Shown: piece by piece, positions 34,399 through 60,467 of the stretch
Position numbering within the stretch: position 1 is the stretch's first letter
How the letters are laid out: the number at the start of each line of letters is the position of its first letter
Virus record (IMG/VR): IMGVR_UViG_3300002220_000029
Location: 11,285-75,284 of that record
Direction: 5' to 3' (one strand)
Source: a virus
Taxonomy: Duplodnaviria; Caudoviricetes
DNA: 64,000 bases
Notes under the pieces: model-generated
Database searches by the model: none
What the model was told of the DNA's origin: nothing
What the model saw: only the letters and a program-made list of their open reading frames with translations
Translations under genes and position numbers: made by a program

Positions 34399-34872
34399 AT
34401 GTTAGTGGATGTAAAAGAAATTAAATTTAAAGAGTTAGCAGCGGCAGTGAAGGTCTTAAATGATAGTGGATTGTTGGTTAAAACAATCGCCACAGTTGGC
34501 GTGACCAAAGAAGCTATCGTTAAGGCTTTTGTTGAAGGCGTTCAGTCGGTTCCCGATGACCAGGATGGAAATTGGACTGGTCCAGAAGAAGTGGCCGATT
34601 ATTACAGTAAGATTGTGATTCCTGATCCTGGAATCGAGACGGGCAAGAAAGAGAAAGTTCCAAAAGAAAAGAAAGAGAAAGTTCCAAAACAGAAAGGAGA
34701 GAAGAGTAAATCTTCGTTGGAAGTAATGAAAGAGCTTATTGCCAACAAAGCTTCCGATGCCGAGATTACCAAGGTGTTCACAGAGAAGTTGACCAAGAAG
34801 GATCCGAAACTTTCGGCAGATTTCATTGCCAAGAGAATCAAGATTTACAAAGGTTTAGCTGCAAAAGGGTAA
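34399..34872 (+). CDS. hypothetical Lys-rich protein
   Basis: AAGGAG RBS; KKEKVPK direct repeat. Confidence 0.6.
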   Translation: MLVDVKEIKFKELAAAVKVLNDSGLLVKTIATVGVTKEAIVKAFVEGVQSVPDDQDGNWTGPEEVADYYSKIVIPDPGIETGKKEKVPKEKKEKVPKQKGEKSKSSLEVMKELIANKASDAEITKVFTEKLTKKDPKLSADFIAKRIKIYKGLAAKG

Positions 34873-34948: not shown

Positions 34949-35326
34949 ATGATTTCAATCTGTAGACGTTTCGAATTTCATGCTGCTCATTATCTTCCGA
35001 ATCATGAAGGAAAATGTAAAGATATTCATGGTCATTCATACATTCTGGAAGTAGAAGTGATAGGAATGATTCACACTGAAGGTCCCGCTACTGGGATGAT
35101 TATGGATTTTAGCAAGTTAAAGAAGATTGTTCATGATTCTGTTTTAGAGAAGATTGATCATAAGAATTTGAATGATATCTGGGATAATCCAACTGCCGAG
35201 AATATGGTCGTGGATATCTCCCGTTGGATTGAGCCACATCTGCCCGGATGGGTTACGGTTAATAGAATTCGTTTATGGGAAACCAGTAATTCTTACGCAG
35301 AATGGAGGATAGAATGGGGTCAGTGA
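34949..35326 (+). CDS. queD: 6-carboxytetrahydropterin synthase
   Basis: FEFHAAHYLP..EGKCKDIHGHSY, MIMDFS, DH..LN, PTAEN, WET. Confidence 0.92.
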   Translation: MISICRRFEFHAAHYLPNHEGKCKDIHGHSYILEVEVIGMIHTEGPATGMIMDFSKLKKIVHDSVLEKIDHKNLNDIWDNPTAENMVVDISRWIEPHLPGWVTVNRIRLWETSNSYAEWRIEWGQ

Positions 35327-35751
35327 AATCAAAAGAACAAATCGGGCCAAAGCTTTTTATCAATGGTATTGAATTGTCAGATCGTTGTCCTCATGAAATA
35401 GTAGAAATATTATTTTTGTGTATCAATTTTACATACTCATCTCTTGAGGCGATCCGAGCAAATCTGGAAGAATTGTTTGCTATGGCTGATGAATATTTAA
35501 TCGACAGAAGGAAGTGGTCTGCTGATAAAAAAGATCGAACCGACTGCTCCCGCCTCTTGAGACAGATCAATATTTGGAAAGTGAAATGGAAGAGATTACC
35601 TAAAGAAGGTTTGATGAGTGCTTACTGGGATTTTATTTTGAGGAATCAAAAGCTTGCGTTGTTACCTGGATTTGGTGTGGCTACCAATTTTGGTGATGTA
35701 TTGAGAGTCAATCCCGAAAAGACGTCGCTTCATTCTATGGTTAAAACCTAA
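35314..35751 (+). CDS. hypothetical protein within the deazaguanine cluster
   Basis: GGAGG RBS before ATG 35314; between queD and queE. Confidence 0.55.
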   Translation: MGSVKSKEQIGPKLFINGIELSDRCPHEIVEILFLCINFTYSSLEAIRANLEELFAMADEYLIDRRKWSADKKDRTDCSRLLRQINIWKVKWKRLPKEGLMSAYWDFILRNQKLALLPGFGVATNFGDVLRVNPEKTSLHSMVKT

Positions 35752-35764
35752 TAGGAGAAATGGT

Positions 35765-36421
35765 ATGAAAATTCATTCTATTTTCAAATCAATCAACGGT
35801 GAAATTTGTTCAGAGCACCAAGGCAGTCTAACAGCCTTTGTTCGTACTTTTGGCTGTAACAGTCGGTGTAGTTATTGCGACACACCATACAGTTACGCAG
35901 AAGGAGGAACTTATTCTGAGATGACTGTCAATCAAATTGTCCAAGAGGTTCTTGATTTGGCGGTTAAGAATGTTACCATAACAGGTGGAGAACCATTATT
36001 GCAAAAAGGAACCATCAATCTTATCAAACAGCTTAAATTGAAACGCCTTCATGTGTCTGTTGAAACAAATGGATCAAAGTTTATACCTAAGATAGAAGGC
36101 GTATCGTGGGTGGCAGATTATAAATTGCCATCTTCTGGTGCTGGACATTTGATGAGAATCAAGAATTACATCAATCTGTCCAGTCGTGATTATGTAAAGT
36201 TTGTCGTGTCAGATAGGCACGATTTTGATACAGCTCTCGAAATCATTCTCAGTATTTTTGTTGTGGTGAATTTCCTTGCAAGACCTAAATTTGCATTTTC
36301 TCCTGTATGGGGATCTCTGGCTCCAGAGACTCTTGCACAATGGATGATTGATAGTGAGTTTTTGTGTCGTCTTGGAGCTATTTATAATCTACAGATTCAT
36401 AAGATCTTGAAGGTATTATAA
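35765..36421 (+). CDS. queE: 7-carboxy-7-deazaguanine synthase (radical SAM)
   Basis: IFKSINGE, FVRTFGCNSRCSYCDTPY, TITGGEPLLQ, VETNGS, LQIHKIL. Confidence 0.92.
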   Translation: MKIHSIFKSINGEICSEHQGSLTAFVRTFGCNSRCSYCDTPYSYAEGGTYSEMTVNQIVQEVLDLAVKNVTITGGEPLLQKGTINLIKQLKLKRLHVSVETNGSKFIPKIEGVSWVADYKLPSSGAGHLMRIKNYINLSSRDYVKFVVSDRHDFDTALEIILSIFVVVNFLARPKFAFSPVWGSLAPETLAQWMIDSEFLCRLGAIYNLQIHKILKVL

Positions 36422-36439
36422 AATAATTGCCTCTGAATT

Positions 36440-36469
36440 TTAAATCCCTTCTATAATAGCTATAATAGA
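36440..36469 (+). promoter_or_regulatory. phage promoter-like motif (double TATAATAG)
   Basis: TTTAAATCCCTTCTATAATAGCTATAATAG upstream of folE. Confidence 0.5.
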
Positions 36470-36483
36470 GTAGGAGAAAATAA

Positions 36484-37068
36484 ATGTTGAAAAAATCTCG
36501 AGAAGTCGTCCAGGCAGAACAGAATGTTAGAGAGCTTTTAGCCTTCATTGGGGAAGATCCTGATCGCCCAGGGTTAGTAGATACCCCCAGTCGTGTGGTT
36601 AAAATGTATCAAGAATTTTTCTGCGGGTATGACCGTAAAAGGCGGCCCAAGATGACCATATTCAAAAATCAAGACGACGGGATCATTTATAATGATATGA
36701 TCTTAGATTCTGGTTTTTTCTTTTCTTGTTGTGAACATCATATGGCAATTTTTTTTGGTAGTTTTCATTGTGCATATATCCCTGATAAACATATCATTGG
36801 ATTGAGCAAGATAGACCGAATTGTTGATTATTATTCGGGTAGGCTTCAAGTGGCGGAGCGGTTGGTGCACCAAATTGTGGATGATTTACAGGAGGTATTA
36901 AATCCAAAAGGCCTTATTCTGGTTATGAATGCCCGTCATCTTTGTAAGGAAATGCGTGGAGTCAAAAAAATTAACAGTCCTGCAGAAGTGATTGCTGTCA
37001 GAGGCGCTTTTGCTACAAATCTTAATGGATGTAAAGACGAATTCATGTCCAGAATTCAAGGGAGGTAA
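36484..37068 (+). CDS. folE: GTP cyclohydrolase I
   Basis: GEDPDRPGLVDTPSRV, SCCEHH, GLSK..R, RLQVAERL, ARHLCKEMRG. Confidence 0.95.
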   Translation: MLKKSREVVQAEQNVRELLAFIGEDPDRPGLVDTPSRVVKMYQEFFCGYDRKRRPKMTIFKNQDDGIIYNDMILDSGFFFSCCEHHMAIFFGSFHCAYIPDKHIIGLSKIDRIVDYYSGRLQVAERLVHQIVDDLQEVLNPKGLILVMNARHLCKEMRGVKKINSPAEVIAVRGAFATNLNGCKDEFMSRIQGR

Positions 37069-37070
37069 CT

Positions 37071-37418
37071 ATGGACCAGATAGTAGCAAATTACAAAAGA
37101 TTCATCGTAATCAGGACCAGCTTTGAGGCGTTGCATCGTTGGCCCGAATGTCCTTTTGAGGACGTTTCTTTTCTAAGGGATGCTCATCGTCATATTTTTC
37201 ATGTGGAAGTTCAGGTGGAGACTTCAATGGATCGGCAGATTGAATTTATCAGATTCAAACGCAAGGTAGACAAGTATATCAAGAAGGAGTTCGCAGGGAA
37301 GAATCTGGGATCTCTTTCTTGCGAAGCGATTGCCGAAGTCCTGTGCTACCGCATGGATGCTAAACGGGTATCGGTTTTTGAGGACAATGAAAATGGGGCG
37401 ATTTATGAAAGGGCATGA
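37071..37418 (+). CDS. QueD-paralog T-fold protein with LxxxHRHxF motif (DpdL-like CDG decarboxylase candidate)
   Basis: HRWP...LRDAHRHIFHV...DRQIEF...SCE..A...V.V.EDNENGA. Confidence 0.65.
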   Translation: MDQIVANYKRFIVIRTSFEALHRWPECPFEDVSFLRDAHRHIFHVEVQVETSMDRQIEFIRFKRKVDKYIKKEFAGKNLGSLSCEAIAEVLCYRMDAKRVSVFEDNENGAIYERA

Positions 37419-38712
37419 TTTTGTAATAATTGATCCATCCAGTCCTGAATTCAACAGAGGTTCATTCTGCTATCTTCCCTTCATTTTATTTTCCGCACTA
37501 AAGGCTCAAGGAATAGATGTAATTCTGTTAGAAGATTTTTCTTGTGCTGATATCGATACAGTGCCAGAGGCCAACAATTATTTGGTAGGTCTTTGGTCAT
37601 ATCCTCAGATTGATGCTTGTTTGGTTTTGAATAGATTTTTGCCCAAGAAACCATTGTTCTTTGGCTATTATCCACTTATTCGCGACTTGAAATTAGGCGA
37701 ATATCTTGTAAGTAATATGCAGATTGAAATAGGGATAGTCAACTATGTCCAGTATTATGAAGGATTTGAAAGGATCTTGTTGTCTGATTGTGACATGCAT
37801 TTGACCAAATATGAAGGGACAGTTTATCCTTTATTTACTTCATATGGTTGCAACAATCGTTGCAAATTCTGTCCAGTATCTGTCAATTGTAACAGTCATC
37901 GCGTAGTAGTGCCTCTTGAAAGCGTGCGAATGGTTTTGGATTTTTGTGGTAGTAAAGGTTATAAAAATATTCATTTCACTGATGAGGATTTCTTTTTTGA
38001 TATTGATCGGGCCGAGCAGATTTTGAGATATACTCAAGGTAAAGATTTTAATTATATTGCTCTGGGAAGTGTTTATACTGTATCTAAATTCATTGAGAAA
38101 TTTGGCACTGATATTTTTGACGAGACTGGAATGCGGCTGATTGAGATCGGGCTGGAGACGGCTGATTCTGTATTAAATAAAAAGATGGGCAAGGGAGGAC
38201 GAGATAAATATTCTGCTTTAGCAGAGCAGACTAAAGGCAAGGTCGATATTTTTTGGCTTACCATGACTTTCTTTCCTGGGGAAACCATTGCTACATTACG
38301 TTCGACAGGATTATTTTTGGAAAAGTATGGGTTTCAATTAGAGGAATTGTATGGTAGGATTCAGACCAATTCCACGTCAGGCGGGTTAGGCCAGTTTTAT
38401 CAATCTTACATTGGGACACCAGAAAATGAAAATATTGAAGACAAAGGCATAGTTTTGTCTGAGAGGCCAGTGAGACTGATCCCCAGTTTTGTACCGTATA
38501 CTTTTTTGGGATGTCGAATTACGAAATGGCGAATGATCAGGGAAGATGAAAAGAAGTGGTTTGAGTTGTATAGGATTCCTGAAAAGCTGGTCCATGTAAA
38601 AATTTCTTTGAATACCATTGCACAAACTATCGAAATGTTAAAAGGCATATATAATGTAAATGACATTGTAACTTTTTTAGCTATCTCAGCCCGTTTAGGA
38701 GTTATTGAATGA
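37405..38712 (+). CDS. radical SAM enzyme with N-terminal Rossmann/B12-binding-like domain
   Basis: TSYGCNNRCKFC (CxxxCxxC), HFTDEDFF, IGLETAD, FFPGET. Confidence 0.8.
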   Translation: MKGHDFVIIDPSSPEFNRGSFCYLPFILFSALKAQGIDVILLEDFSCADIDTVPEANNYLVGLWSYPQIDACLVLNRFLPKKPLFFGYYPLIRDLKLGEYLVSNMQIEIGIVNYVQYYEGFERILLSDCDMHLTKYEGTVYPLFTSYGCNNRCKFCPVSVNCNSHRVVVPLESVRMVLDFCGSKGYKNIHFTDEDFFFDIDRAEQILRYTQGKDFNYIALGSVYTVSKFIEKFGTDIFDETGMRLIEIGLETADSVLNKKMGKGGRDKYSALAEQTKGKVDIFWLTMTFFPGETIATLRSTGLFLEKYGFQLEELYGRIQTNSTSGGLGQFYQSYIGTPENENIEDKGIVLSERPVRLIPSFVPYTFLGCRITKWRMIREDEKKWFELYRIPEKLVHVKISLNTIAQTIEMLKGIYNVNDIVTFLAISARLGVIE

Positions 38713-39710
38713 GAATAATTAATGTGCCAATTGAAAGTTTGGAAGAACGTTATTCTGCTCAATGGAATAAATGGTTCCCAGAAGCCTTTACCGATATGAG
38801 AATCAATTTTGTTAACATCTATCCCGATACGCTCTCTGACCATATTAAGGATGGTTCTTTCTTAGATGTTTGTGGCACCAATTATTTTAAGGCTGGCCAA
38901 TTAAAAATATTGACCAAAATGTTATTCCAAGACGAGATTGAGAAGGATGATGTTATCTTTTTTCATGATCTTTGGTGTCCAGGCATAGAAATGCTTCAAT
39001 ACATCAGACAAGGAAAGAAATTGAATTTTAAGATCTGTGGCATTCTCCATGCAGGGACGTATGATCCTTACGATTTCCTGGCCAAACAAGGCATGGCTTC
39101 TTGGGGTGGTCCTCTTGAAGAAGTTTGGTTTAGTTTTATTGATCAAATCTATGTGGCAACAGAATTTCATAAAAATCTTATTTGGCATAAAAGAAAAATT
39201 GATTTTGATAAGATCAAAGTGACAGGATTACCAATTTACAATAATCAATATCCTGATATGATGAGGAAAGAAAATATTGTTGTATTCCCTCACAGGCTTG
39301 ATTCGGAGAAGAATCCACAGTTGTTTGATCGATTGTCAATCGATGCAACTACAGAAGGTTGGCAATTTATTAAAACCAAAGAAGTGTGTAAGACAAAAAA
39401 AGATTACTTTAAACTTTTGAACCGGGCTAAAATAGCAGTGTCATTCGCTGATCAGGAAACATGGGGCATTGCTCAGCAAGAGGCGTTATTTGCTAAATGT
39501 TTTCCTGTAGTGCCTAATCGGCTCAGTTATTCAGAAATGTATAGAAGGAGTTTTAGATATTCTTCTTTTGAAGAGGCTGTTCATTTGGTCAAGAAATTGA
39601 TGGAGCCTAACAGCGAAGATTTTGATCAACTATCTTATAATAGAGATGAGTTGCTCAGACGTGGCGATTTAGCTATACTAAACATTGTAAATGAAATGGA
39701 GAAATTATGA
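38709..39710 (+). CDS. GT-B glycosyltransferase, GTDC1/QTMAN-like
   Basis: FPHRLDSEKNP...KKDYFKLL.RA...S.A.QETWGIAQQEA...CFPVVPNRLSYSE. Confidence 0.8.
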   Translation: MRIINVPIESLEERYSAQWNKWFPEAFTDMRINFVNIYPDTLSDHIKDGSFLDVCGTNYFKAGQLKILTKMLFQDEIEKDDVIFFHDLWCPGIEMLQYIRQGKKLNFKICGILHAGTYDPYDFLAKQGMASWGGPLEEVWFSFIDQIYVATEFHKNLIWHKRKIDFDKIKVTGLPIYNNQYPDMMRKENIVVFPHRLDSEKNPQLFDRLSIDATTEGWQFIKTKEVCKTKKDYFKLLNRAKIAVSFADQETWGIAQQEALFAKCFPVVPNRLSYSEMYRRSFRYSSFEEAVHLVKKLMEPNSEDFDQLSYNRDELLRRGDLAILNIVNEMEKL

Positions 39711-40702
39711 ATCTGATGTTGGACAGTGGTTCGCCAAGCCTTTACAACACCTTGGTTAGAAAAAAGAAAACCAAAGGTATCATGGGGGCTTTTCTAAAAG
39801 ATAGAGTAGAATTTGATAATGAAGGAAAAAGGGTTAGTGCTGATACATTCGAATTTTTAGAAACAGAGAAGTATTTGATATACAAAGAGGAATACATTGC
39901 CTTCCTTTTGAAAAATCAGCAGTATTTTGATGTCTATGTAAATCTCGATATCATTAACAATGCACAGGCGACTTGGGATAATCAACAAGAGATGGAGTCT
40001 TATGGGCTGAAGCCTATTCCAGTATTTCATTTTGGGTCTGACATAAAGTGGTTGCATATGTATCTTGAGAAGGGCTACAAGTATATTGCTATGGGAGGCT
40101 TCATTCCAAACCCCGTAGCGGTGTTACAGCCAATTTTAGATGATCTGTGGGCGAATATTTTATGCGATAAAGAAGGGATTCCAAAGGTAAAGGTCCACGG
40201 TTTTGCTGTTACGTCGGCCAGGCTTGTTGCTCGTTATCCGTGGTGGAGTGTTGATAGTACCAGTTGGGCCAAGATTGGAATTTATGGAGCCATTACTGTT
40301 CCAAGGCATAAAAATGGTCAGTGGGTTTATGATGGTACTCCTCATGTTGTTTTTACATCCAATAAGAGCAAGGCTCAGAATGAGATTAATGGTAAACATA
40401 TCAATACTGTCACTTCTGTTGAGAGAGAATATATTTTGGCATTTCTGAAAGAAAATGGTGTTGCCTTAGGTAAGTCTTCTTTCAAAACAGAGAGTAAGTT
40501 TAGCGGGTATGTGCCAAAGGCAAATGAGCGATGGGTTGATTTGAAAACCAAAGACGAGATTGAGATTATTGAAGAGCAAGGTGTGTGCAACCAGTTTGAG
40601 TTAAGAAATAAGATCAATCTTTTATTTTTTATTAACCTTCAAAAAAATCTTCCGGAGTGGCCTTGGGCTTTCAAACGGACAGTGAAAGGATTTGGACTAT
40701 GA
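39707..40702 (+). CDS. dpdA: DpdA-like deazaguanine-DNA transglycosylase (TGT fold)
   Basis: MLDSGS, YVNLDII, IPVFH, IAMGG, VHGFAVT, SVDSTSW; context with folE/queD/queE. Confidence 0.78.
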   Translation: MNLMLDSGSPSLYNTLVRKKKTKGIMGAFLKDRVEFDNEGKRVSADTFEFLETEKYLIYKEEYIAFLLKNQQYFDVYVNLDIINNAQATWDNQQEMESYGLKPIPVFHFGSDIKWLHMYLEKGYKYIAMGGFIPNPVAVLQPILDDLWANILCDKEGIPKVKVHGFAVTSARLVARYPWWSVDSTSWAKIGIYGAITVPRHKNGQWVYDGTPHVVFTSNKSKAQNEINGKHINTVTSVEREYILAFLKENGVALGKSSFKTESKFSGYVPKANERWVDLKTKDEIEIIEEQGVCNQFELRNKINLLFFINLQKNLPEWPWAFKRTVKGFGL

Positions 40703-40905
40703 AACTTTATATTGCTGGAGAGAATCCTCATGGCGTTAACCCAAATACGCCAAGAGAGAGATGTGATAATGACATTCACGATTTTATTGAGAGCCAGGGA
40801 ATAGAAATGAATCGGCTTGTTTCTTTCTTTTACAAAGGATCGGTCCTGAGAAATATTAAATTGAAAAAAGAATTGGAGGATGAGCGTGAAAATACAAAAA
40901 GCTGA
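40699..40905 (+). CDS. small hypothetical protein (MKLYIAG...RLVSFFY)
   Basis: ATGA overlap with the dpdA-like stop. Confidence 0.5.
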   Translation: MKLYIAGENPHGVNPNTPRERCDNDIHDFIESQGIEMNRLVSFFYKGSVLRNIKLKKELEDERENTKS

Positions 40906-41908
40906 GTTACAGAGGATTTTGGAAAATCTCCGGCCTGGACTTGCCAAAAGGGATATTGTTAGTAAACTATCTGATTTTACTTTTTTAGGAGACAGGATTT
41001 GCGCCTTTAATGATCAAATATCCATTAGTCATCCTTTTGAATCGGAGTTTGAATGTTCGGTTGATGGCCAAAATTTTTATTCAGTTATTGTGAATATTCC
41101 TGAAGGCAACATTGATTTGACATTGGCAGAATCAAAGTTAATTATCAAAGGAGAGAAGGCAAAGGCATCTCTTGTAACTTCTGAAGGCGGTGGTGTTCTT
41201 GGTAAGATTAAAGTGCCCAGAATAAAATCGAAGAAGTGGAAGGATTTACCAGAGATGTTTACGAAAGGGGTTAAACTTTGTTCATTCAGTGTTTCCACTG
41301 ATTTGACAAGGCCGGCTTTAACATGTATTGCTGTTCAGGGCGATAAGATTTTTTCTGCTGACAATCTCAGAATTAGTAAATTTTTACTGTCCACCCCAGT
41401 TGGCGATGATTTTTTGATTACTGGAGTATCAGCGGTCATCTTGGCCAAATATCCTGTGACTCAGTATTTAAAAGATGATAGTTGGGTTCATTTTAAGACT
41501 GAAGGAGACATCATTTTTTCTTGTCGAGTTATTGTTGATGTTTTTCCTGATGTGAGCGAGTATTTCAAGGTGGATGGCGTGTCTTTTGCCTTGCCAGCCG
41601 AGTTAAAGAATGTTGTTGATTCTGTTTCGGTCGTCGCTGACGAAGAATTTGTCGTTGATCAAATTATTTCGGTGTTCCTTTCTAAAAAAGATAAAACTAT
41701 CGTTTGTTCTGGGCAAGGTTCTCTCGGATCTTTTGAAAGGTCGTGTTCTTTAGGTGTTCGTATCCAGAGCGATGTAGCATTTAATATTAATCCGTCTTTC
41801 TTTTCTGAGGTTTTATACAGCGGGTCCGAGATGACTTTGGGAGATAACCATGCGTTGTTTACGGGCGATTCTTTCGAGCATGTCATGTGTTTACCTTGTA
41901 AATCATAG
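40880..41908 (+). CDS. dnaN: DNA polymerase sliding clamp (beta-like)
   Basis: FSVSTDLTRPALT..I....AD..R, VFPDVSEYF, AFNINP.FF; 342 aa. Confidence 0.8.
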   Translation: MSVKIQKAELQRILENLRPGLAKRDIVSKLSDFTFLGDRICAFNDQISISHPFESEFECSVDGQNFYSVIVNIPEGNIDLTLAESKLIIKGEKAKASLVTSEGGGVLGKIKVPRIKSKKWKDLPEMFTKGVKLCSFSVSTDLTRPALTCIAVQGDKIFSADNLRISKFLLSTPVGDDFLITGVSAVILAKYPVTQYLKDDSWVHFKTEGDIIFSCRVIVDVFPDVSEYFKVDGVSFALPAELKNVVDSVSVVADEEFVVDQIISVFLSKKDKTIVCSGQGSLGSFERSCSLGVRIQSDVAFNINPSFFSEVLYSGSEMTLGDNHALFTGDSFEHVMCLPCKS

Positions 41909-41950: not shown

Positions 41951-44900
41951 ATGGAATTTTGTCATCTCCACGTTCATACAGAAAATTCGCTTTTAGATGG
42001 ATATGGTAGCGCTAAACAGTATCTGTCTAAAGCTAAGGAGTTGGGGTTTCAATATCTTGCTTGTACTGATCATGGGAATCAAGATGGGTTAATTAAGTTT
42101 CAAAGAGAGGCAGAGAAACAAGGCATTAAATCTATCTTAGGCTGTGAATTATATATTGTGCCAGATGCCTCTATCAAAGTGCCTAAAGAATTTAGATTTC
42201 ATGTAACCGTGTTAGTTAAAGATAATGATGGTTGGCATAACCTTTGTAAAATATTGACAGAAGCGAATCTGCATGGTTTTTACTATAAGCCAAGGGCAGA
42301 TTTTGATATGTTGAAAAAATATAGTAAAGGATTAGTTTTTTTGAGTGGCTGTACCGCCACTGTTTTGACATCTAAGATTGGTCAGGATTTCTTTTGGGAG
42401 TTAAATGTCCTGTGTCCTGGCGATTGTTACTTAGAAGTTATGCCTCATCTGTTTGATGATCAGATGGAAGTCAATAAGATTTGTTGTGAATATGGGTTGC
42501 CATTGGTAGCAACAAATGATTGTCATTATGTCAATGAAGATGATGGTATGGTGCATGAAGTGTTGTTGGCTATTCAAACTAAAGCTAAGTGGTCTGATAG
42601 TTCGCGTTTTCGTTTTGAAACCAGAGGTTTGTTTCTCCGTTCATCTCAAGAGATGAAAGAAGCTTTTAAACTTCAAGATGTTTTAACTAAATCTCAATAT
42701 CTTTTGGCAATGAGGAACACAGTTGAGATTGCCGAGAAGTGTTCTGATTTTAAGATCCAAAAACAAGATATCTTTTTACCTTCCATATTACAGAAAGGCG
42801 AGTCTGAAAATCTTTTTCTTCGGACACTTTGCGAGAAAGGATACAGAAAAATATTTGGCGAATTGATCGAGAATGATTCTATTTATTATGATCGTTTCCT
42901 TGAAGAGTTTAACATGATCAAAAAGAAAAAGTTCATTCGATATTTTCTGGTCGTTTGGGAGCTTACTGAATGGTGTAAAAAGAACAATATTATGATTGGA
43001 CCAGGCCGGGGTTCTGTGGGCGGCAGTCTTATTGCTTATTTGATTGGTATTACTTCTGTTGATCCAATCAAATATAATTTATTATTTTCTCGTTTCATTG
43101 CAGAAGATCGAATTGATTATCCGGATATTGATTTGGACTTTGAGGATGTTAAAAGACCACTGATCAGAGGTCATCTTGAAGAGATGTATGGTAAAAATAA
43201 TATTGCCAGTGTGTCTACTTTTATGGATATGAAGGGAAGAGCGGCAATACGTGATGTTGCAAGGGTTTTTGAGATACCGTATGGCGAAGTAGATGAGTTT
43301 GCTAAATTTATTGAAGATGAAAATGGTGATGGCAGTTCTATTGAAACAGCAGCAAGTGATCATTGGTTTTCTCAAAAGTATCCTGAGGCTGTAAAAATTG
43401 CCATTAGATTAGAAGGACAGACGAGAGGTGTTGGCCAGCATGCCGCTGCTCTTATTGTGTCTGCTGATGATCTTACGCAAGGAGCCAGGTGTAATCTTTC
43501 TGTTCGATCAAATCAAGAGGTTGTTAACTGGGATAAAGATGATGCCGAATATGTAGGCCTTATGAAATTAGATGTTTTAGGTCTTAATACATTGTCTATT
43601 TTAAATGAAACCAAAAGGCTGGTAAAGGAGAATCATAACAAGGAAATTGTTTTTGAGAAAATCACATTAGATAATCCTCAAGTTTTTGATATGCTGTCAA
43701 AAGGACAAACAGTAGGTGTTTTTCAATTTAATACTTGGCCAACAACTAAGCTTTGTAAAGAGGTTGGTGTTGATAGTTTTGGTTTAATGAGCGATGTCGT
43801 CGCTTTAGTTAGGCCTGGTCCTGCCGACAGTGGGATGACTGCCGATTTTATTAAAAGGAAGCATGGAAAGAAGTGGCTAAAGAAACACAGGATTTATGAA
43901 CAGATCACACGAGATACTTTTGGTATCATTATTTATCAAGAACAAGTAATGCAAGTTATCAGCGAAGTGGCCGGATTGCCATATTCGACGGCTGATAAGA
44001 TTAGGAAGATTATTGCAAAGAAAAGAGATGTCAAAGAATTTGAAAAATATAGAGAAATGTTTGTTGATGGCTGTGAAAAAAAAGAGACCTTATCTGAAAA
44101 GGAAGCCTTGGAATTCTGGGAAGCTCTTGAGAAACATGCAAGTTACAGTTTTAATCGTTGTTTGGCGGGAGATACAGTTGTTAACCGAGCATCAGCTGGA
44201 AGATTTTGCGGGTTAGATGTTACATTGAAAGATTTATATGAAAGTCGGTATTCGAAAACGAGTACAGGCGATAAACTTCGCTGTAGAGGATTGCATCTTC
44301 TTCAATGGAAAGAGTTAGATTCTCGTATTCATACAGGGAAAATGACAAATATCTATGATAGTGGAGTTCAAGAAGTTTGGTTAATTTGTTTAGAATCGGG
44401 GAATTCAATCAAGGCAACAGACCAACATCGTTTTTTGGCCAAGAGAAGAGAAAAAAATTTATATGTCAAAGTATGTGATTTGAAAATTGGTGATTTGTTA
44501 GCTATTAAAGGCCCCAGAGTAAAGGAAATAATCAAAGCTGCTCTTGATAGTAGACCTTTGAAAACAACATATCGTGGTAGAGGGTTTCAAAAAGGAGAGG
44601 ATAATGTAGGATACATTGATGGAAGAGGAAAATTTCTAAAACCGGCAAGGATAAAGGTTTCTTTAAGAGCGCGCGGCAGATGTGAGGAATGCGGGAAGGA
44701 AATAGAAAAAGAATGCGAATCATGTCATCAGAAAGTAAAAATAGGAAGACCCGAATTTGCTCATGTCAAACTTTTAGATGAACTGAATTATGACCATGAA
44801 TTATACCATTCTCTTGAAAATATAATGTATCTTTGTAATTCATGCCACAAGAAAAAAGATTATGAAAAAGGAGAAAGGAAGGTAAGACATTCGGTGGGGA

Positions 44901-46180
44901 GAATAATAGAATATTCTCCTATCAAATCTATCAAATACGTTGGAAAAGAACAGACATATGATGTTGAAATGGAAGATCCACATAATTTTATTGCCAATGG
45001 TTTTGTAAGCCATAATTCTCACAGCGTCGAGTATTCTATGATAGCATATTGGTGTGCATTTTGTAAGTTGTATTTTCCAGCTGAGTTTTTGTGCGCTAAT
45101 TTATCATATGGATCAGATGGCAAAAAAGAAGAATTGGTCAAAGAGGCAAGGCGGTTAGGCTTGAATATTGTTCTGCCAAAGATTGGTGTTTCTGATGCTC
45201 ATAAATGGGTTGTTAAAGATGGCAAGTTATATGTTCCTTTCATTGAGATAAAAGGTGTAGGCGAAAAAGTGGCTTTAGAACTTTTGAAGTATCGTCCTCC
45301 GGAGCCACAAGAAGTAGTATTACATCAACAAAGTAAGCCAAGGCAACGAGGTTTTTTTGATTTAAAGCAGGAAGAACCTAAAACAGTGTTAAAAGAGGTA
45401 AAAGAAAAAAAGATAGATAAATTATTAAAGGCCATTGGAGCGATTGGCAATAATCCAGAAGAAGATTTGTCAAAGTATTTTTCTTTTGATATGAGTGTTG
45501 ATAAACGGGACGAATTTCCTAATCTACGCCAATGTCTTGGCTTTAGTTTTCCTCCTAAGGATCTTGAAGCCATGTTGAGTTTAGAATTGCCTGTAGGCTA
45601 TATTCGAGGAAAGATTCATACTTCTAAATTCCAAAATCCAGAGCTTTTGTATTGCCAGGATTGTGATCTTGTAAAACAGTGTAAAAGACCAGTATTACCT
45701 TCGTCGGGAAGGTACAATCTTGCTATTGTTGGCGAGGCTCCTGGGCCGAATGAGGATAAACAAGGAGAAGGATTTGTTGGACGCGCTGGCGATTTGGTTT
45801 GGAAAGAGTTAGGCCAATATGGTCTTATACGCAGGTTTTTTCATGTAACGAATTGTGTTAAATGTTATCCTGGCGAGATTAAGACTCCGGCTGTAAGACA
45901 TTTAACAGCTTGTAAGAAATGGCTTGATGAAGAGATCAAACAAGCTGAGATAAAATTATCATTGGTATTTGGAAATACGGGGTTAAAATATTTTAAGGGA
46001 GAGGATGGCGGTATTACCAAATACAGTGGCAAGGCAGAATGGCTTGAGAATTATGGCATGTGGGCTTGCTGGTGTGTTCATCCTGCTTCGGTATTGAGAG
46101 ATCCTAAAAATAAGGATGATTTTCAATCAGGGATTGCAAACTTTGTGGAAAAAATAAATGTTCTGGGAGGATTGAAATAA
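41951..46180 (+). CDS. dnaE: DNA polymerase III alpha (DnaE) with intein and C-terminal family-4 uracil-DNA glycosylase domain
   Basis: PHP HLHVHTE..TDHG; GPGRGSVGGS; YPDIDLDF; KLDVLGL; FNR|intein|SHS; C-terminal VGEAPG.NED..GEGFVG.AG, TNCVKC, HPA. Confidence 0.93.
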   Translation: MEFCHLHVHTENSLLDGYGSAKQYLSKAKELGFQYLACTDHGNQDGLIKFQREAEKQGIKSILGCELYIVPDASIKVPKEFRFHVTVLVKDNDGWHNLCKILTEANLHGFYYKPRADFDMLKKYSKGLVFLSGCTATVLTSKIGQDFFWELNVLCPGDCYLEVMPHLFDDQMEVNKICCEYGLPLVATNDCHYVNEDDGMVHEVLLAIQTKAKWSDSSRFRFETRGLFLRSSQEMKEAFKLQDVLTKSQYLLAMRNTVEIAEKCSDFKIQKQDIFLPSILQKGESENLFLRTLCEKGYRKIFGELIENDSIYYDRFLEEFNMIKKKKFIRYFLVVWELTEWCKKNNIMIGPGRGSVGGSLIAYLIGITSVDPIKYNLLFSRFIAEDRIDYPDIDLDFEDVKRPLIRGHLEEMYGKNNIASVSTFMDMKGRAAIRDVARVFEIPYGEVDEFAKFIEDENGDGSSIETAASDHWFSQKYPEAVKIAIRLEGQTRGVGQHAAALIVSADDLTQGARCNLSVRSNQEVVNWDKDDAEYVGLMKLDVLGLNTLSILNETKRLVKENHNKEIVFEKITLDNPQVFDMLSKGQTVGVFQFNTWPTTKLCKEVGVDSFGLMSDVVALVRPGPADSGMTADFIKRKHGKKWLKKHRIYEQITRDTFGIIIYQEQVMQVISEVAGLPYSTADKIRKIIAKKRDVKEFEKYREMFVDGCEKKETLSEKEALEFWEALEKHASYSFNRCLAGDTVVNRASAGRFCGLDVTLKDLYESRYSKTSTGDKLRCRGLHLLQWKELDSRIHTGKMTNIYDSGVQEVWLICLESGNSIKATDQHRFLAKRREKNLYVKVCDLKIGDLLAIKGPRVKEIIKAALDSRPLKTTYRGRGFQKGEDNVGYIDGRGKFLKPARIKVSLRARGRCEECGKEIEKECESCHQKVKIGRPEFAHVKLLDELNYDHELYHSLENIMYLCNSCHKKKDYEKGERKVRHSVGRIIEYSPIKSIKYVGKEQTYDVEMEDPHNFIANGFVSHNSHSVEYSMIAYWCAFCKLYFPAEFLCANLSYGSDGKKEELVKEARRLGLNIVLPKIGVSDAHKWVVKDGKLYVPFIEIKGVGEKVALELLKYRPPEPQEVVLHQQSKPRQRGFFDLKQEEPKTVLKEVKEKKIDKLLKAIGAIGNNPEEDLSKYFSFDMSVDKRDEFPNLRQCLGFSFPPKDLEAMLSLELPVGYIRGKIHTSKFQNPELLYCQDCDLVKQCKRPVLPSSGRYNLAIVGEAPGPNEDKQGEGFVGRAGDLVWKELGQYGLIRRFFHVTNCVKCYPGEIKTPAVRHLTACKKWLDEEIKQAEIKLSLVFGNTGLKYFKGEDGGITKYSGKAEWLENYGMWACWCVHPASVLRDPKNKDDFQSGIANFVEKINVLGGLK
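44159..45016 (+). mobile_element. intein (286 aa) with HNH-type endonuclease
   Basis: Starts CLAGDT, block B KATDQHRFL, ends TYDVEMEDPHNFIANGFVSHN with +1 Ser; interrupts FN(K/R)SH; internal CEEC...AHV...N..YLCNSCH. Confidence 0.92.
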
Positions 46181-52472: not shown

Positions 52473-53561
52473 ATGTTTAAATTTCTTAGACTTAAAAATT
52501 ACAAGAGTCATGAAGATTCTTTGATTCACTTTCACAAAGGGGTTAATGTTATATTTGGCCTGAGCCAAGCTGGCAAAACTAATTTTTTAAAAGGATTGAG
52601 GCTATTGGCTGATAATCGACCTCTCGGCGGTAAGTTTTTTTCGGATTTTGCTGGCGAAAAAGGGGAAACTCAGATCACTCTTGGTCTGGATGGTCAAGAT
52701 ATTTCTATTACTAAATCGATCAAAATCAATAAAGAAGGCGATAAACAAGTAATCAAAACAGCTTATACGATAGGCGATTTGGAATTTTCATCGCCCAAAG
52801 ATCAGGTTCCCGATCAAGTTGTGGCGGCATTGAATCTTTCTGAGTTGAATATCCAAGGACAGTTTGATCCTCCGTTTTTAGTTTCGTCATCTGGTGGCGA
52901 GATTGCTAAAACAATTAATAGAATTACAAGGCTTGAAGAAGTAGATGATTGGGTATCAGAGCTGACCAGTGACATCAATGCGGGCAATCGTGATGTTGTT
53001 CGAATAGAAAGTGAAGCCAAAAATCTGATTCAAGAGATTGAAATATACAGCGACATTGAAGAGACAGAGGAAATTGTTAACGAGTTGCAAGCAGTTTCAA
53101 AAGAAGTGGCAAGATTACTTATTCAACAAAATGATTGGGATAGATTGCTTGTCAGTTTTGAGAATGCTGTCAGAGCGTGTGAAAGGTTTGATGGGGTTGA
53201 TGGAGCTGATCAACATATCAAAGATGCCGAAAAGATACAAGACGAGATTGAAATTTATGAGAATTTAAAGGGGCTGATTTGTAGTTATGAATCAAAGATG
53301 TTTGATGACGACAATCTGGTCCGGGCTGAACGGTATGTTGCAAAGGCCGAAAAGATTGATGCTGAAATATCTCTTTTTGTTGAAATGAGAAGTCGGCTCA
53401 GAGTTTATGAGCAGGCGGTGGACGATATGCAACAAAAGGTTCTATTTTTAGAGAATAAGAAAGGGAAATACATGGATTTGTTAAAGACCATTAAAAAGTG
53501 TCCAATTTGTTTCTCTGACATCAGTGCCAAGCATTTAAAGAATGTGGAGGCCTCATTATGA
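52473..53561 (+). CDS. SbcC/Rad50/gp46-like ATPase, N-terminal half ending at the zinc hook
   Basis: LKNYKSH, Walker A GLSQAGKT, Q-loop IQGQFD, coiled coil, terminal CPIC. Confidence 0.8.
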   Translation: MFKFLRLKNYKSHEDSLIHFHKGVNVIFGLSQAGKTNFLKGLRLLADNRPLGGKFFSDFAGEKGETQITLGLDGQDISITKSIKINKEGDKQVIKTAYTIGDLEFSSPKDQVPDQVVAALNLSELNIQGQFDPPFLVSSSGGEIAKTINRITRLEEVDDWVSELTSDINAGNRDVVRIESEAKNLIQEIEIYSDIEETEEIVNELQAVSKEVARLLIQQNDWDRLLVSFENAVRACERFDGVDGADQHIKDAEKIQDEIEIYENLKGLICSYESKMFDDDNLVRAERYVAKAEKIDAEISLFVEMRSRLRVYEQAVDDMQQKVLFLENKKGKYMDLLKTIKKCPICFSDISAKHLKNVEASL

Positions 53562-54508
53562 AATTTGTTTGTTTGAGCGACATTCATCTTTCATCAGAGA
53601 ATTCTGAGGCTCGGCAGGATAATCTCGTTGAGACTCAATTTGACAAGTTGGAATTTGTATTGCAGTTAGCCAACGAGAATCAAGCAGCAATCTTGCAAGC
53701 TGGTGATTTTTTTCATCGTCCAAGAAGTTGGATGCTTTTGCCAACGGTGATTGATCTGCTGAAAAAGTATCAAGTGGATATTTACAGCGTAAGAGGTCAA
53801 CATGATGATTATCTCTATTCAGAAGAAACAAAAGACAGAACTAATCTGGGTATCCTTGTAAAAGTAGGGTTGGTTATTCCTCTTTCTGTTGATCGTCCAG
53901 TTGTGGTCCAGGATGCGGTGTTGTATGGAGCGAATTTCGGTCAGAACCTATGCGATCTTGGACGAAAGAAGTTAGGATATACCATAGGAGTCATTCACCG
54001 TTCTATCTCTGACAAGGCTTTATGGCCAGGACATCAGTTTACGTCTGCTGATAGATATTTGAAGGATAGCCCCGATTATGATTTTATTTTGGTAGGCGAT
54101 ATTCATCGTAGGTTTGAAGTCGTATCTGGGAATAGAAGGTTGGTTAACACTGGTCCTATGTTGCGTAGAGAAGCCACTGAATATAATTTTGACCATGAGC
54201 CATCAGTGTTTTTGTTAGATACAGAAGATCTGCAGCAATGTGCATGGATGGAAATTCCTTATAGTCCCGCTAATCGAGTGTTAAGTCGGGATCATATTGA
54301 ACGTAAGGCCGAAGCGGATACATTACTGGATGAGTTTGTAAGAATGATTAAAGATGATGCCATAACGATGGGGATGGGGATGGATGTCGACCAAAGTGGC
54401 GTTTCTTTCACAGAAAATTTAATTGCATTTTCAGAGGCCAATAAGGTCGAGCCAAAAGTGATGGATGTGATTGCGAAATTTGTTGAGCGATCAAAGGAGG
54501 GGTTGTAA
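53558..54508 (+). CDS. SbcD/Mre11/gp47-like metallophosphoesterase nuclease
   Basis: SDIH, AGDFFH, GQHD, GDIH motifs. Confidence 0.88.
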   Translation: MKFVCLSDIHLSSENSEARQDNLVETQFDKLEFVLQLANENQAAILQAGDFFHRPRSWMLLPTVIDLLKKYQVDIYSVRGQHDDYLYSEETKDRTNLGILVKVGLVIPLSVDRPVVVQDAVLYGANFGQNLCDLGRKKLGYTIGVIHRSISDKALWPGHQFTSADRYLKDSPDYDFILVGDIHRRFEVVSGNRRLVNTGPMLRREATEYNFDHEPSVFLLDTEDLQQCAWMEIPYSPANRVLSRDHIERKAEADTLLDEFVRMIKDDAITMGMGMDVDQSGVSFTENLIAFSEANKVEPKVMDVIAKFVERSKEGL

Positions 54509-54756
54509 TGAGTAGTGATGACAAGGCGCTTGCTGATGTGAAGCGTGATATTGAAAGCTTGAAGCGCGAAATGGCTGTTAAAGAAGGCGAGAGGAATTCT
54601 ATATTTGAGCGTATCAAAAAAGATTTTGGGGTCAAGACCTTAGATGATGCCTATGACAAGCTCAAGGAACTTGGTACTGATATTGAAATCAAAAAAGAAC
54701 GCCGAGAAGAATTGATTAGGCAGGCACAGGCAAAACTGGCAGGATATAAAAAATGA
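54508..54756 (+). CDS. small coiled-coil protein (possible SbcC fragment)
   Basis: 82 aa heptad pattern between sbcD-like and the C-terminal ATPase half. Confidence 0.55.
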   Translation: MSSDDKALADVKRDIESLKREMAVKEGERNSIFERIKKDFGVKTLDDAYDKLKELGTDIEIKKERREELIRQAQAKLAGYKK

Positions 54757-55421
54757 CAGTCCAAGAGATTACACAAGAATTTGTAGAAGCTAAGGCCAGG
54801 CATGGCTTGTTGAAACAAGATCTTGATATCAAACTTAATCAAATTCTTTATCAAAAAGAACAGGTTGAATACATGGTTAAGGCCAGGTGGGTTTTGACTG
54901 AGGTGGCTACTCAGACACAGAAGCGATTCAAAGAAAAGGTCGAAACACTTGTGACCATGGCTATTAGAAGCGTATTTGATCGTCCTTTTCAATTTCTTTT
55001 GGGATTTGAACGTAAAAGAAATAAAATGGAGTGTAAACCAGAGATTAAAGAATTGGTAAACGGTAAATACAGGACCTTTGATCCATCGGAAGATATGGGT
55101 GGTGGTATGGTTGACATCATATCGTTTGCGCTCAGAGTTGTTTTGTGGAGTTTGGAAAAGCCACGTAGTAGAGCAGTGATTGTTTTTGATGAGCCGATGA
55201 AGAATTTAGGCAAAATGGTATCTCTTGCTGGACAAGTTCTAAAAGAAATCAGCCATAAATTAAATTTTCAGCTTATTATTATCACGCATGAAGATGAATT
55301 AATAGAAATTGCAGACCGGGCATACTATATTTCGCATGATGGTAACAAATCTCATGTTGAACTTGTAAAAGGGGAACTGGTAAATGCCACCAAAAAAGCC
55401 CGTATCGTCAGAGGTTCTTAG
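54753..55421 (+). CDS. SbcC/Rad50-like ATPase, C-terminal half
   Basis: Signature-like DMGGG, Walker B IVFDEP, H-loop IITH. Confidence 0.8.
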   Translation: MTVQEITQEFVEAKARHGLLKQDLDIKLNQILYQKEQVEYMVKARWVLTEVATQTQKRFKEKVETLVTMAIRSVFDRPFQFLLGFERKRNKMECKPEIKELVNGKYRTFDPSEDMGGGMVDIISFALRVVLWSLEKPRSRAVIVFDEPMKNLGKMVSLAGQVLKEISHKLNFQLIIITHEDELIEIADRAYYISHDGNKSHVELVKGELVNATKKARIVRGS

Positions 55422-59463: not shown

Positions 59464-59670
59464 ATGGCAAAGCGTAGTTATGAAGACAGACCGTTGTCGT
59501 TTGGTAAGTTTAGAGGAAAATTGATCTGCGACATACCTTCTGGCTATTTGACATGGTTGTCGGAGCAGGATTTCTTTTCCAGAGACTTTCCTGCTTTGTT
59601 TGATCTGGTTGAACAGGAGTTGCTTTATAGGGACAGATGGGTAGAACATTTTTATGAGGAGAGAAAATGA
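59464..59670 (+). CDS. DUF3820-like small protein
   Basis: LSFGKFRGKLICDIPSGYLTWL. Confidence 0.65.
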   Translation: MAKRSYEDRPLSFGKFRGKLICDIPSGYLTWLSEQDFFSRDFPALFDLVEQELLYRDRWVEHFYEERK

Positions 59671-60467
59671 GACTACGCTTTGGTATGATTGGTAACGGTA
59701 CAATTGCAGGCAGGCACAAGGAGGCAATCAAATCAATCAATGGTGTGTTGAGATGGGTATCTGATCCAGCATTGGTTACTGACGAGGGTAAAATTCCTTA
59801 TTGCTCTTTTGACCAGAATGCATATATGAGTAATCTGCCACCTTCTGACTGGATGTTTGATTTGGTGGATTATATTGTCGTTTGCTCGCCTACTTACTTG
59901 CACAGACACCATGTAAAGGAGGCTCTCAAACATAACAAACAGGTGATTTGCGAGAAGCCATTGTGCTTGCCTTGGGAGCCCTTGATTGATGATGATCGTA
60001 TAAACATCGTCCTGCAATTACGGTATATTGAGAACTTGCCAAAGAAGGCTGATTTGGTCAAGGCTGTGATGGTCAGGGATGAGGAGTTCTTCAAGTCGTG
60101 GAAGGGCGATCCAAGAAAGGCTGGAGGCAACATCTACGAGTTCTTTATTCACTACATTGACCTTGCCATCCTTCTTGGAGCAAACTTTGAGGGTGCTGTT
60201 TCTCCCAAAGGAGCACAGGAAAGGAAGATCATTTATGATAAGGAATACGGCCTGGTTCAGGATGAGGCAGAGATTGACATTATGAAGATCGACATGCAAC
60301 ATTTGTACAATAGGATGTATGAGGACATCTGCTGCAGTCAGACTGGCGGTGTAAAGCCACGAGACATATTTTACCTTTCATGGATCCTCAATCGCAACAG
60401 TGAGCTTTATGGATACAGGAAGGGCGGGTTTGATAGGCCAATAAAAATATCAAAAGAACTCCTATAA
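59667..60467 (+). CDS. Gfo/Idh/MocA oxidoreductase, WbpB/WlbA-like NDP-sugar dehydrogenase
   Basis: GMIGNGTIAGRH, CSPTYLH, CEKPL, LQLRY, SWKGDPRK. Confidence 0.8.
   Translation: MRLRFGMIGNGTIAGRHKEAIKSINGVLRWVSDPALVTDEGKIPYCSFDQNAYMSNLPPSDWMFDLVDYIVVCSPTYLHRHHVKEALKHNKQVICEKPLCLPWEPLIDDDRINIVLQLRYIENLPKKADLVKAVMVRDEEFFKSWKGDPRKAGGNIYEFFIHYIDLAILLGANFEGAVSPKGAQERKIIYDKEYGLVQDEAEIDIMKIDMQHLYNRMYEDICCSQTGGVKPRDIFYLSWILNRNSELYGYRKGGFDRPIKISKELL

Follow-up and report, generated by a model that had tools for sequence, protein, structure and literature searches.

The closest described relative of the system considered here is that of the Cellulophaga phage phiST, which encodes FolE, QueD, QueE, DpdL and DpdA3 without QueC, and in which 2'-deoxy-7-deazaguanosine (dDG) fully replaces deoxyguanosine (Cui et al. 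2023, PMC10516641). DpdL is the proposed decarboxylase of 7-carboxy-7-deazaguanine (CDG) in this pathway and is recognized by the signature LxxxHRHxF, found in place of CxxxHGH (Cui et al. 2023, PMC10516641). Expression in Escherichia coli of dpdL and dpdA, taken from phiST or from the Acidovorax phage ACP17, yielded no dDG, and the same authors suggested that further enzymes may be required (PMC10516641). This work concerns a cluster of the same type in a 64,000-nucleotide stretch of DNA, hereafter the window, which is part of a 75,284-base IMG/VR virus contig (record IMGVR_UViG_3300002220_000029; completeness estimate 86%). Two additional genes stand there between dpdL and dpdA, one for a glycosyltransferase (GT) of the GT4 type and one for a radical S-adenosylmethionine (SAM) enzyme that resembles AprD4. 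What is new is this conserved GT, together with exchangeable radical SAM enzymes, on a known DpdL-type core, and the product that they predict is not in the literature found. The comparison of these loci inclines us to the view that phages of many lineages, including ACP17, the PA5oct-like phages and BUCT-ZZ01, carry a glycosylated 7-deazaguanine, which would be the first sugar-bearing purine in natural DNA, and that one or the other of two interchangeable radical SAM enzymes, related to aminoglycoside-tailoring enzymes, goes on to modify that sugar in about 80% of the clusters.

Judging from its genes, the core of the cluster is the DpdL-type, QueC-less pathway published for the dDG of phiST, with the GT and a second radical SAM enzyme as novel additions. 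FolE, a QueD with the CxxxHGH motif, QueE, a DpdL with LxxxHRHxF and a DpdA-family transglycosylase, closest to the DpdA of 9g/CAjan-type phages, are all encoded, while QueC (PF06508) had no match in the contig or in five complete relatives, under conditions in which control genomes were matched. The DpdL motif is kept in 130 of the 134 family members, and all twelve invariant residues are common to the DpdL of phiST and the GT-linked DpdLs, so both probably catalyze the same reaction. In the Chryseobacterium phage MA9V-3, which has no GT match, DpdL forms the C-terminal part of a 293-amino-acid protein with an uncharacterized N-terminal domain (L094, 6488-7369). The original prediction, made from the letters of the window, had described a 7-deazaguanine DNA-modification cluster extended by two enzymes, and family matches and motifs bear it out, all of the genes that it named being present on the plus strand between 34949 and 40905. 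Its "QueD paralog" exists too but is not a new protein, being the already named DpdL. It had also held that no described product requires both an extra radical SAM enzyme and a GT-B glycosyltransferase; none came to light in full-text literature searches, which likewise returned no description of a glycosylated or radical-SAM-elaborated 7-deazaguanine in DNA or of this module.

The genes run in the order QueD, ORF149, QueE, FolE, DpdL, AprD4-like radical SAM enzyme, GT, DpdA and an open reading frame (ORF) of 68 amino acids, and they are close-packed or overlapping, the GT and dpdA genes each overlapping a neighbour by 4 bases. A search at the DNA level against 50,697 phage records gave no match to the locus. 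The same block was found again in about 100 viral loci, and the arrangement is therefore not due to chance.

Concerning the GT, the model of the protein has the two-Rossmann GT-B fold and is structurally nearest to BshA (6n1x; Z 26.0, rmsd 3.2, 303 residues aligned), below which comes a broad plateau of retaining GT4, GT5 and GT20 enzymes. The top relatives are BshA, MshA, LmbT and sugar-phosphate synthases. A pterin glucosyltransferase also appears, only within the general GT4 plateau, where it is uninformative, and T4-type DNA glucosyltransferases are not among the structural matches listed, which points neither way. The score against the Pfam family Glycos_transf_1 (15.9 bits) is below the cut-off of 26.4 bits. 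The EX7E pair (E250/E258) and R196/K201 are invariant in all 38 sequences compared, and so, in the N-terminal acceptor domain, are many aromatic and acidic residues. Because the donor motifs are kept, the protein is predicted to be an active transferase of nucleoside diphosphate (NDP) sugars. No sugar nucleotidyltransferase (NTP_transferase) was matched in the genome, so the donor should be an NDP-sugar of the host. Likewise, the genome holds no hydroxymethylase-like homologue of the thymidylate synthase ThyA, which makes a 5-hydroxymethylpyrimidine an unlikely acceptor.

The distribution of the GT is equally specific. A profile scan of IMG/VR found relatives encoded in 382 stretches, while 185,579 species genomes gave only 11 loci, all of them on contigs of metagenome-assembled genomes (MAGs) and nearly all with DpdA or DpdL beside the GT; the nearest Atlas clusters are 85-100% viral. 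By these scans, the GT family is specific to viruses and bound up with the DpdL-type pathway. The 80 IMG/VR loci that were fetched, together with the loci of other scans, contributed 85 distinct GT sequences, and in 75 of these loci both DpdL and a DpdA lie within the fetched DNA, most of the others being cut contigs. Several gene orders occur (DpdL-rSAM-GT-DpdA, where rSAM is the radical SAM enzyme, GT-DpdA-DpdL, GT-DpdL-DpdA, DpdL-GT-DpdA and DpdA-GT-DpdL), and three types of DpdA pair with the GT: that of the window, DpdA3 (ACP17 and BUCT-ZZ01) and that of PA5oct. Among isolated phages, tblastn found the GT in ACP17, PA5oct-like jumbo phages, Phosso, BUDD/X1, BCSR5 and the cyanophage BUCT-ZZ01. 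The order is DpdA3-GT-DpdL-QueE in ACP17 (gene identities assigned in this analysis), DpdA3-DpdL-GT in BUCT-ZZ01, and DpdA-GT-DpdL in the PA5oct-like phages, followed there by a short epimerase-like protein, a phosphoribosyltransferase and QueE. All 40 true orthologues of the AprD4-like enzyme in IMG/VR lie between or beside DpdL and the GT. The original prediction had staked itself on the linkage of both extra enzymes to dpdA in other genomes, and these 75 GT loci and 40 radical SAM orthologues supply it.

GT4 enzymes often act on envelope or protein targets, and the GT and radical SAM enzyme might in principle glycosylate a protein or the host envelope, being merely located in a replication module. 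A distant phage paralogue of the GT (26% identity), in the Xanthomonas phage PhiXhv-12, is of interest in this regard, since its neighbours are GlmS and an LmbE-like deacetylase, and within 6 kb of it there was no sign of a deazaguanine gene. We nevertheless give a target unrelated to the DNA base very little credence, because the GT adjoins DpdL and DpdA across gene orders, unrelated phage groups and three DpdA types, and every true radical SAM orthologue lies in the module. The PhiXhv-12 locus itself (L150, 3678-6912), whose deacetylase is of the N-acetylglucosamine (GlcNAc) kind, may be a different sugar-based modification system, and its gene content hints at UDP-GlcNAc as the donor for the clade to which the GT belongs.

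The second new enzyme consists of an N-terminal Rossmann-like domain and a radical SAM barrel with a single CX3CX2C cluster site. Its best structural match is AprD4 (6fd2; 354 of 434 residues aligned, spanning residues 1-434), with the cobalamin enzymes MgmA, CysS, TsrM and OxsB next (Z 18-20), and AprD4 is also the best solved relative by sequence profile. The resemblance to AprD4 is structural only: the score against the AprD4 family NF033070 is 16.9 bits, against a cut-off of 500, so that sequence does not place the enzyme in that family. It also lies far under every other curated family cut-off, the best being TIGR04479 (PhpK) with 43.7 bits against 600. A methylthiotransferase identity of the MiaB/RimO kind was rejected, since the only invariant cysteines are the three of the radical SAM cluster (C148/C152/C155) and no second N-terminal set of iron-sulfur cysteines is present. 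As the longest homologues have 430-445 amino acids, translation probably starts at ATG 37408 and not at TTG 37330. One homologue, P0011 (722 amino acids), contains an intein (PF14890). The enzyme had no match in isolated phages by tblastn, and by this search no cultured phage carries it.

The loci that lack the AprD4-like enzyme are the most informative with regard to the role of this step. At first sight the radical SAM enzyme is simply optional, an explanation that was discarded when most of the "negative" loci proved to carry a different one. In 24 GT loci there is a radical SAM protein of about 300 amino acids, with CX3CX2C and a C-terminal cysteine-rich twitch/SPASM region, which forms a single family and whose closest solved relative by sequence is the butirosin-pathway aminocyclitol dehydrogenase BtrN (5.8e-8). 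The 75 loci thus divide into 36 with the AprD4-like enzyme, 24 with the twitch-type enzyme, none with both and 15 with neither, ACP17, the PA5oct-like phages and BUCT-ZZ01 being among the last; the mutual exclusion has a Fisher exact p of 1e-9, uncorrected for phylogeny. The radical SAM states interleave on the GT tree, with 16 changes by parsimony, of which the well-supported branches force at least three. From these distributions, the second radical enzyme looks like an exchangeable tailoring step. Since the loci without it and those with the twitch type are interleaved, the acceptor of the GT would not depend on either radical enzyme. That two unrelated radical enzymes, both nearest to enzymes acting on sugar or cyclitol hydroxyls, fill the same slot is what the presence of a sugar to be tailored would predict.

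These observations also bear on the order of events. The original prediction had the radical SAM enzyme act first, for example by installing a C7 substituent that the GT would then glycosylate. In a fuller version of this scheme the substituent would go on C7 or C8 and might be a methyl or hydroxyalkyl group, added through cobalamin-dependent chemistry of the TsrM or CysS type. The class-B architecture and the structural similarity to MgmA, CysS, TsrM and OxsB, with a weaker one to the PhpK family, agree with such a scheme, and TsrM methylates a pyrrole carbon of indole that is chemically close to C8 of a 7-deazapurine. We nonetheless regard this order as improbable. Orthologous GTs operate in 15 of the 75 clusters without any second radical SAM enzyme and in 24 with the non-orthologous, BtrN-like type, the states being interleaved on the tree; the low PhpK score stands with the failure to reach the cut-offs of the curated class-B families (PhpK, HpnJ and others); and the closest solved relative, by 3.7 Z units, is the sugar 1,2-diol dehydratase AprD4, which speaks against an installer of a C7 substituent. 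AprD4 works without cobalamin.

We therefore favour, tentatively and at somewhat less than an even chance, the reading in which the window holds a DpdL-type operon with two tailoring enzymes, a sugar being added onto 7-deazaguanine already inserted in the DNA and then reshaped. In this pathway FolE, QueD and QueE would convert GTP into CDG, as in established enzymology; DpdL would putatively turn CDG into 7-deazaguanine, as proposed in the literature; and DpdA, by the reaction established for its family, would exchange guanine in the phage DNA for 7-deazaguanine. The GT could then transfer a sugar from a host NDP-sugar to the inserted deazaguanine, and the AprD4-like enzyme could reshape that sugar, for example by dehydrating or oxidizing a hydroxyl. 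The outcome would be a sugar-bearing purine in DNA, which may block restriction and other DNA-targeting defences. The strict association of the GT with DpdL-type and not with QueC-type clusters suggests that the free C7-H product matters. Action after insertion is favoured by the pairing of the same GT with three very different DpdA subfamilies.

Several points weigh against this reading. For every GT-carrying phage the sugar product is a prediction from the genes, and the resemblance to AprD4, at about 13% identity, is too distant to define which reaction the radical SAM enzyme would catalyze. As 7-deazaguanine lacks a hydroxyl, the sugar would need an N-, O6- or C-linkage; we know of no GT4 enzyme for glycosylation of any of these kinds on DNA. 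Many of the GT loci come from one broad phage lineage, so the locus counts are not independent. The reaction of DpdL is itself a proposal, dDG not having been reconstituted with DpdL and DpdA (PMC10516641). Finally, the GT and radical SAM families are acidic (median isoelectric points 5.9 and 5.6) and DpdA is basic (8.7), and this, together with solved relatives that act on small molecules, weakly favours action on the free base over action on DNA.

The last point fits the alternative that DpdL, the GT and the radical SAM enzyme build the sugar-bearing deazaguanine in the cytoplasm on the free base, and that DpdA inserts the finished, bulky base. In the same sense, the top relatives of the GT (BshA, MshA, LmbT and the sugar-phosphate synthases) and AprD4 use small-molecule acceptors, and eukaryotic tRNA-guanine transglycosylase (TGT) inserts the bulky queuine. 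Moreover, dpdA is the final gene of the run in the window lineage, and HuiG glycosylates a nitrogen of a free 7-deazapurine with UDP-GlcNAc (preprint 10.64898/2026.04.15.718813). Assembly before insertion is in our view unlikely, even if it ranks next after glycosylation of the DNA. The partners of this one GT family come from three very different subfamilies of DpdA, among them DpdA3, whose phiST member operates in a dDG system without a GT, and each subfamily would have had to adapt to the bulky base. A sugar on N2 would also clash with the recognition of the 2-amino group by the TGT family. Fusions of the GT to other enzymes of the pathway were also looked for and none emerged (no GT form of at least 584 amino acids was seen), which is weak evidence.

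A further possibility, somewhat less likely again, is that the final DNA bears no sugar, and that the GT, with the radical SAM enzyme where present, helps to make or insert plain dDG or 7-carboxy-7-deazaguanine (as dCDG), for example through a transient glycosyl intermediate. These proteins would then be the "other unknown enzymes" suspected by Cui et al., given that DpdL and DpdA of ACP17, a GT carrier, gave no dDG in E. coli (PMC10516641); the GT occurs strictly with DpdL-type clusters, none having been seen alongside QueC-type clusters in the searches made. Against a helper role, phiST has full dDG with DpdL and DpdA3 and neither a GT nor a second radical SAM enzyme, its reconstitution having failed as well, and the GT is present in about six of the twelve isolated DpdL phage groups, about half of them showing no match (tblastn, limit 1e-5). 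The GT also retains its full set of donor-binding and catalytic motifs, and it is difficult to see why two different radical SAM enzymes of the sugar type should occur if there were no sugar for them to act on. Overall, we rank glycosylation at the DNA level first and at the base level second, followed by the helper role, the order of the original prediction and an unrelated target.

Some published observations on related phages can be set beside these readings. The DNA of PA5oct, which carries the GT, DpdL and DpdA, is resistant to several restriction enzymes; a modified guanine is the explanation that the authors propose, without identifying the base (PMC12191111). The Vibrio phage VP1 is fully dDG by high-performance liquid chromatography-mass spectrometry (preprint 10.1101/2025.10.29.685425), and as no genome record is linked to that result it has no bearing on the GT hypothesis.

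The features of the module and two downstream genes are collected in Table 1.

Table 1. Genes of the modification module in the window, with the two replication genes that follow it as context.
Feature	Coordinates	Strand	Evidence
QueD (6-carboxytetrahydropterin synthase)	34949..35326	+	PF01242 7e-33; TIGR03367 94.7 bits (cut-off 89.25); CxxxHGH motif
ORF149, no assigned function	35302..35751	+	no match in Pfam, PHROG, NCBIfam or Atlas
QueE (7-carboxy-7-deazaguanine synthase, radical SAM)	35765..36421	+	phrog_2076 6.8e-34; TIGR03963 4.5e-48, under curated cut-off; CX3CX2C motif
FolE (GTP cyclohydrolase I)	36484..37068	+	PF01227 1e-54; NF006826 188.7 bits (cut-off 162)
DpdL (T-fold QueD paralog), 115 amino acids	37071..37418	+	phrog_17812 2.2e-19; exact LxxxHRHxF motif
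AprD4-like radical SAM enzyme	37408..38712	+	PF04055 2.4e-14; AprD4 PDB profile match 2.1e-12; AF2 pLDDT 94; VIA Z 23.7 to AprD4 6fd2
Virus-specific retaining-type GT4 (GT-B) glycosyltransferase (predicted)	38709..39710	+	AF2 model pLDDT 92; BshA Z 26.0; EX7E and R/K motifs
DpdA (DNA guanine transglycosylase)	39707..40702	+	phrog_887 1.8e-40; tblastn 35-39% identity to annotated phage DpdA genes
68-amino-acid ORF	40699..40905	+	ATG 40699 overlaps dpdA stop as ATGA; frames and fused forms in relatives
Sliding clamp	40880..41908	+	phrog_947 9.5e-28; context, outside modification module
DnaE-type polymerase with intein and C-terminal domain of the uracil-DNA glycosylase (UDG) superfamily	41951..46180	+	PF07733 2.9e-75; PF14890 3.6e-16; PF03167 1.5e-20; context

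Two small ORFs of the cluster deserve comment. ORF149 is not a conserved member of the module, as it was found in only 6 related loci and its position shifts between them. The small ORF that the original prediction placed at the end of the run exists, while its boundaries are better read as 68 amino acids from ATG 40699. In the close relatives L004 (9075-10379) and L006 (8637-9890) the corresponding sequence extends DpdA at its C-terminus, after a linker of about 18 residues, whereas the DpdA of the relatives L005 and L007 does not have it. Just upstream of the cluster (34399-34872) lies a lysine-rich protein of 157 amino acids with no family match, conserved in 84 related loci and situated in several of them (e.g., L005 and L007) between QueE and FolE, inside the pathway; it may be a further component or merely a syntenic neighbour.

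The large genes of the contig are all on the plus strand, and a replication module surrounds the cluster. Upstream are helicases, a primase and a DnaB-like helicase; downstream are the clamp, the DnaE-type polymerase, a clamp loader, a gp32-like protein, RecA, a flap nuclease and a terminase, the first two directly following the cluster as had been claimed. The polymerase comprises PHP, NTPase and finger domains, an intein (residues 757-1022) and, at its end, the UDG-superfamily domain (residues 1256-1392); the fusion of a UDG to a C-family replicase in a phage with a predicted modified guanine is unusual. Farther along, an SbcC-like ATPase is split in two pieces (AAA_23, N-terminal, 52473-53561; SMC_N, C-terminal, 54753-55421) around an SbcD-like phosphoesterase (53558-54508). 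After the terminase genes, an NAD-binding oxidoreductase of the Gfo/Idh/MocA type is encoded at 59667-60467. Of ten related phage genomes, just one, that of the closest relative, encodes it, and it is thus neither part of the module nor a conserved partner of the radical SAM enzyme.

Other loci show variations around the same pathway. A phosphoribosyltransferase adjoins QueE in the PA5oct-like phage PAC2 (L002, 8806-9764) and in BUCT-ZZ01 (L151, 1069-1530), and in the PA5oct-like phages the short epimerase/dehydratase-like protein also lies by QueE. This arrangement hints at a nucleotide-level branch like that of tubercidin or toyocamycin biosynthesis. In a 3.18-Mb contig of an Alphaproteobacteria MAG (L149), QueD, the GT, a PA5oct-type DpdA, DpdL and QueE occur together, and this occurrence represents a prophage or else a cellular copy.

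If it is real, a sugar-bearing 7-deazapurine in DNA would open a new class of DNA hypermodification. The enzymology would be new as well, namely a GT4 enzyme working on a base without a hydroxyl and a radical SAM enzyme acting on a sugar linked to DNA or to the base. Such a base would bear on restriction, CRISPR, type IV and glycosylase defences that sense deazaguanine, and on the sequencing of such phages. The prediction is open to direct experiment, since isolated phages carry the minimal module; 7-deaza-dGTP is commercially available, so that substrate DNA can be made. The role proposed for the GT may also explain why the ACP17 pathway could not be rebuilt from DpdL and DpdA alone (Cui et al.).

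Compared with known systems, the window is nearest to phiST. Both are QueC-less, share the DpdL motif and its invariant residues, and have these genes adjoining a DnaE-type polymerase. They differ in that a MazG-like enzyme and a small P-loop ATPase take, in phiST, the place of the radical SAM enzyme and the GT, and in that the phiST transglycosylase is a DpdA3, whereas the DpdA of the window is nearest to the 9g/CAjan type. To our knowledge, the deazaguanines of DNA all carry small C7 groups, and the glycosylated bases of DNA are all pyrimidines (glucosyl-5-hydroxymethylcytosine, base J and sugar-bearing thymidine derivatives). The alpha- and beta-glucosyltransferases of phage T4 are GT-B enzymes that use a host UDP-sugar to glycosylate 5-hydroxymethylcytosine, a modified base, in DNA once it has been replicated. 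Unlike the GT of the window, they belong to other GT families and act on the hydroxymethyl group of a pyrimidine; a hydroxymethylase-like gene is absent from the present genome. Nucleic acids with a glycosylated 7-deazaguanine derivative do exist, in the mannosyl- and galactosyl-queuosine of eukaryotic tRNA. There, however, the carrier is RNA, and the sugar is attached to the cyclopentenediol side chain, which the present pathway could not produce without QueC; a domain scan of the phage GT found none of the domains specific to queuosine glycosyltransferases.

The individual enzymes have counterparts in secondary metabolism. HuiG, of huimycin biosynthesis in Kutzneria albida, differs from the phage GT in using a free base and in belonging to clusters defined by the absence of dpdA. 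In its described reaction it resembles what is predicted for the GT, since it takes the sugar of UDP-GlcNAc and attaches it to a nitrogen of a base that derives from 7-deazaguanine and is produced through genes of the FolE/QueD/QueE type. The radical SAM enzyme of the window is distant in sequence from AprD4 of apramycin biosynthesis, is virus-encoded and has no conserved partner reductase among its relatives. AprD4 and BtrN, the latter from butirosin biosynthesis, are nevertheless alike in acting on hydroxyls of the sugar or cyclitol rings of aminoglycosides, as is proposed here for the two phage enzymes, either of which would reshape the sugar of a glycosylated 7-deazaguanine.

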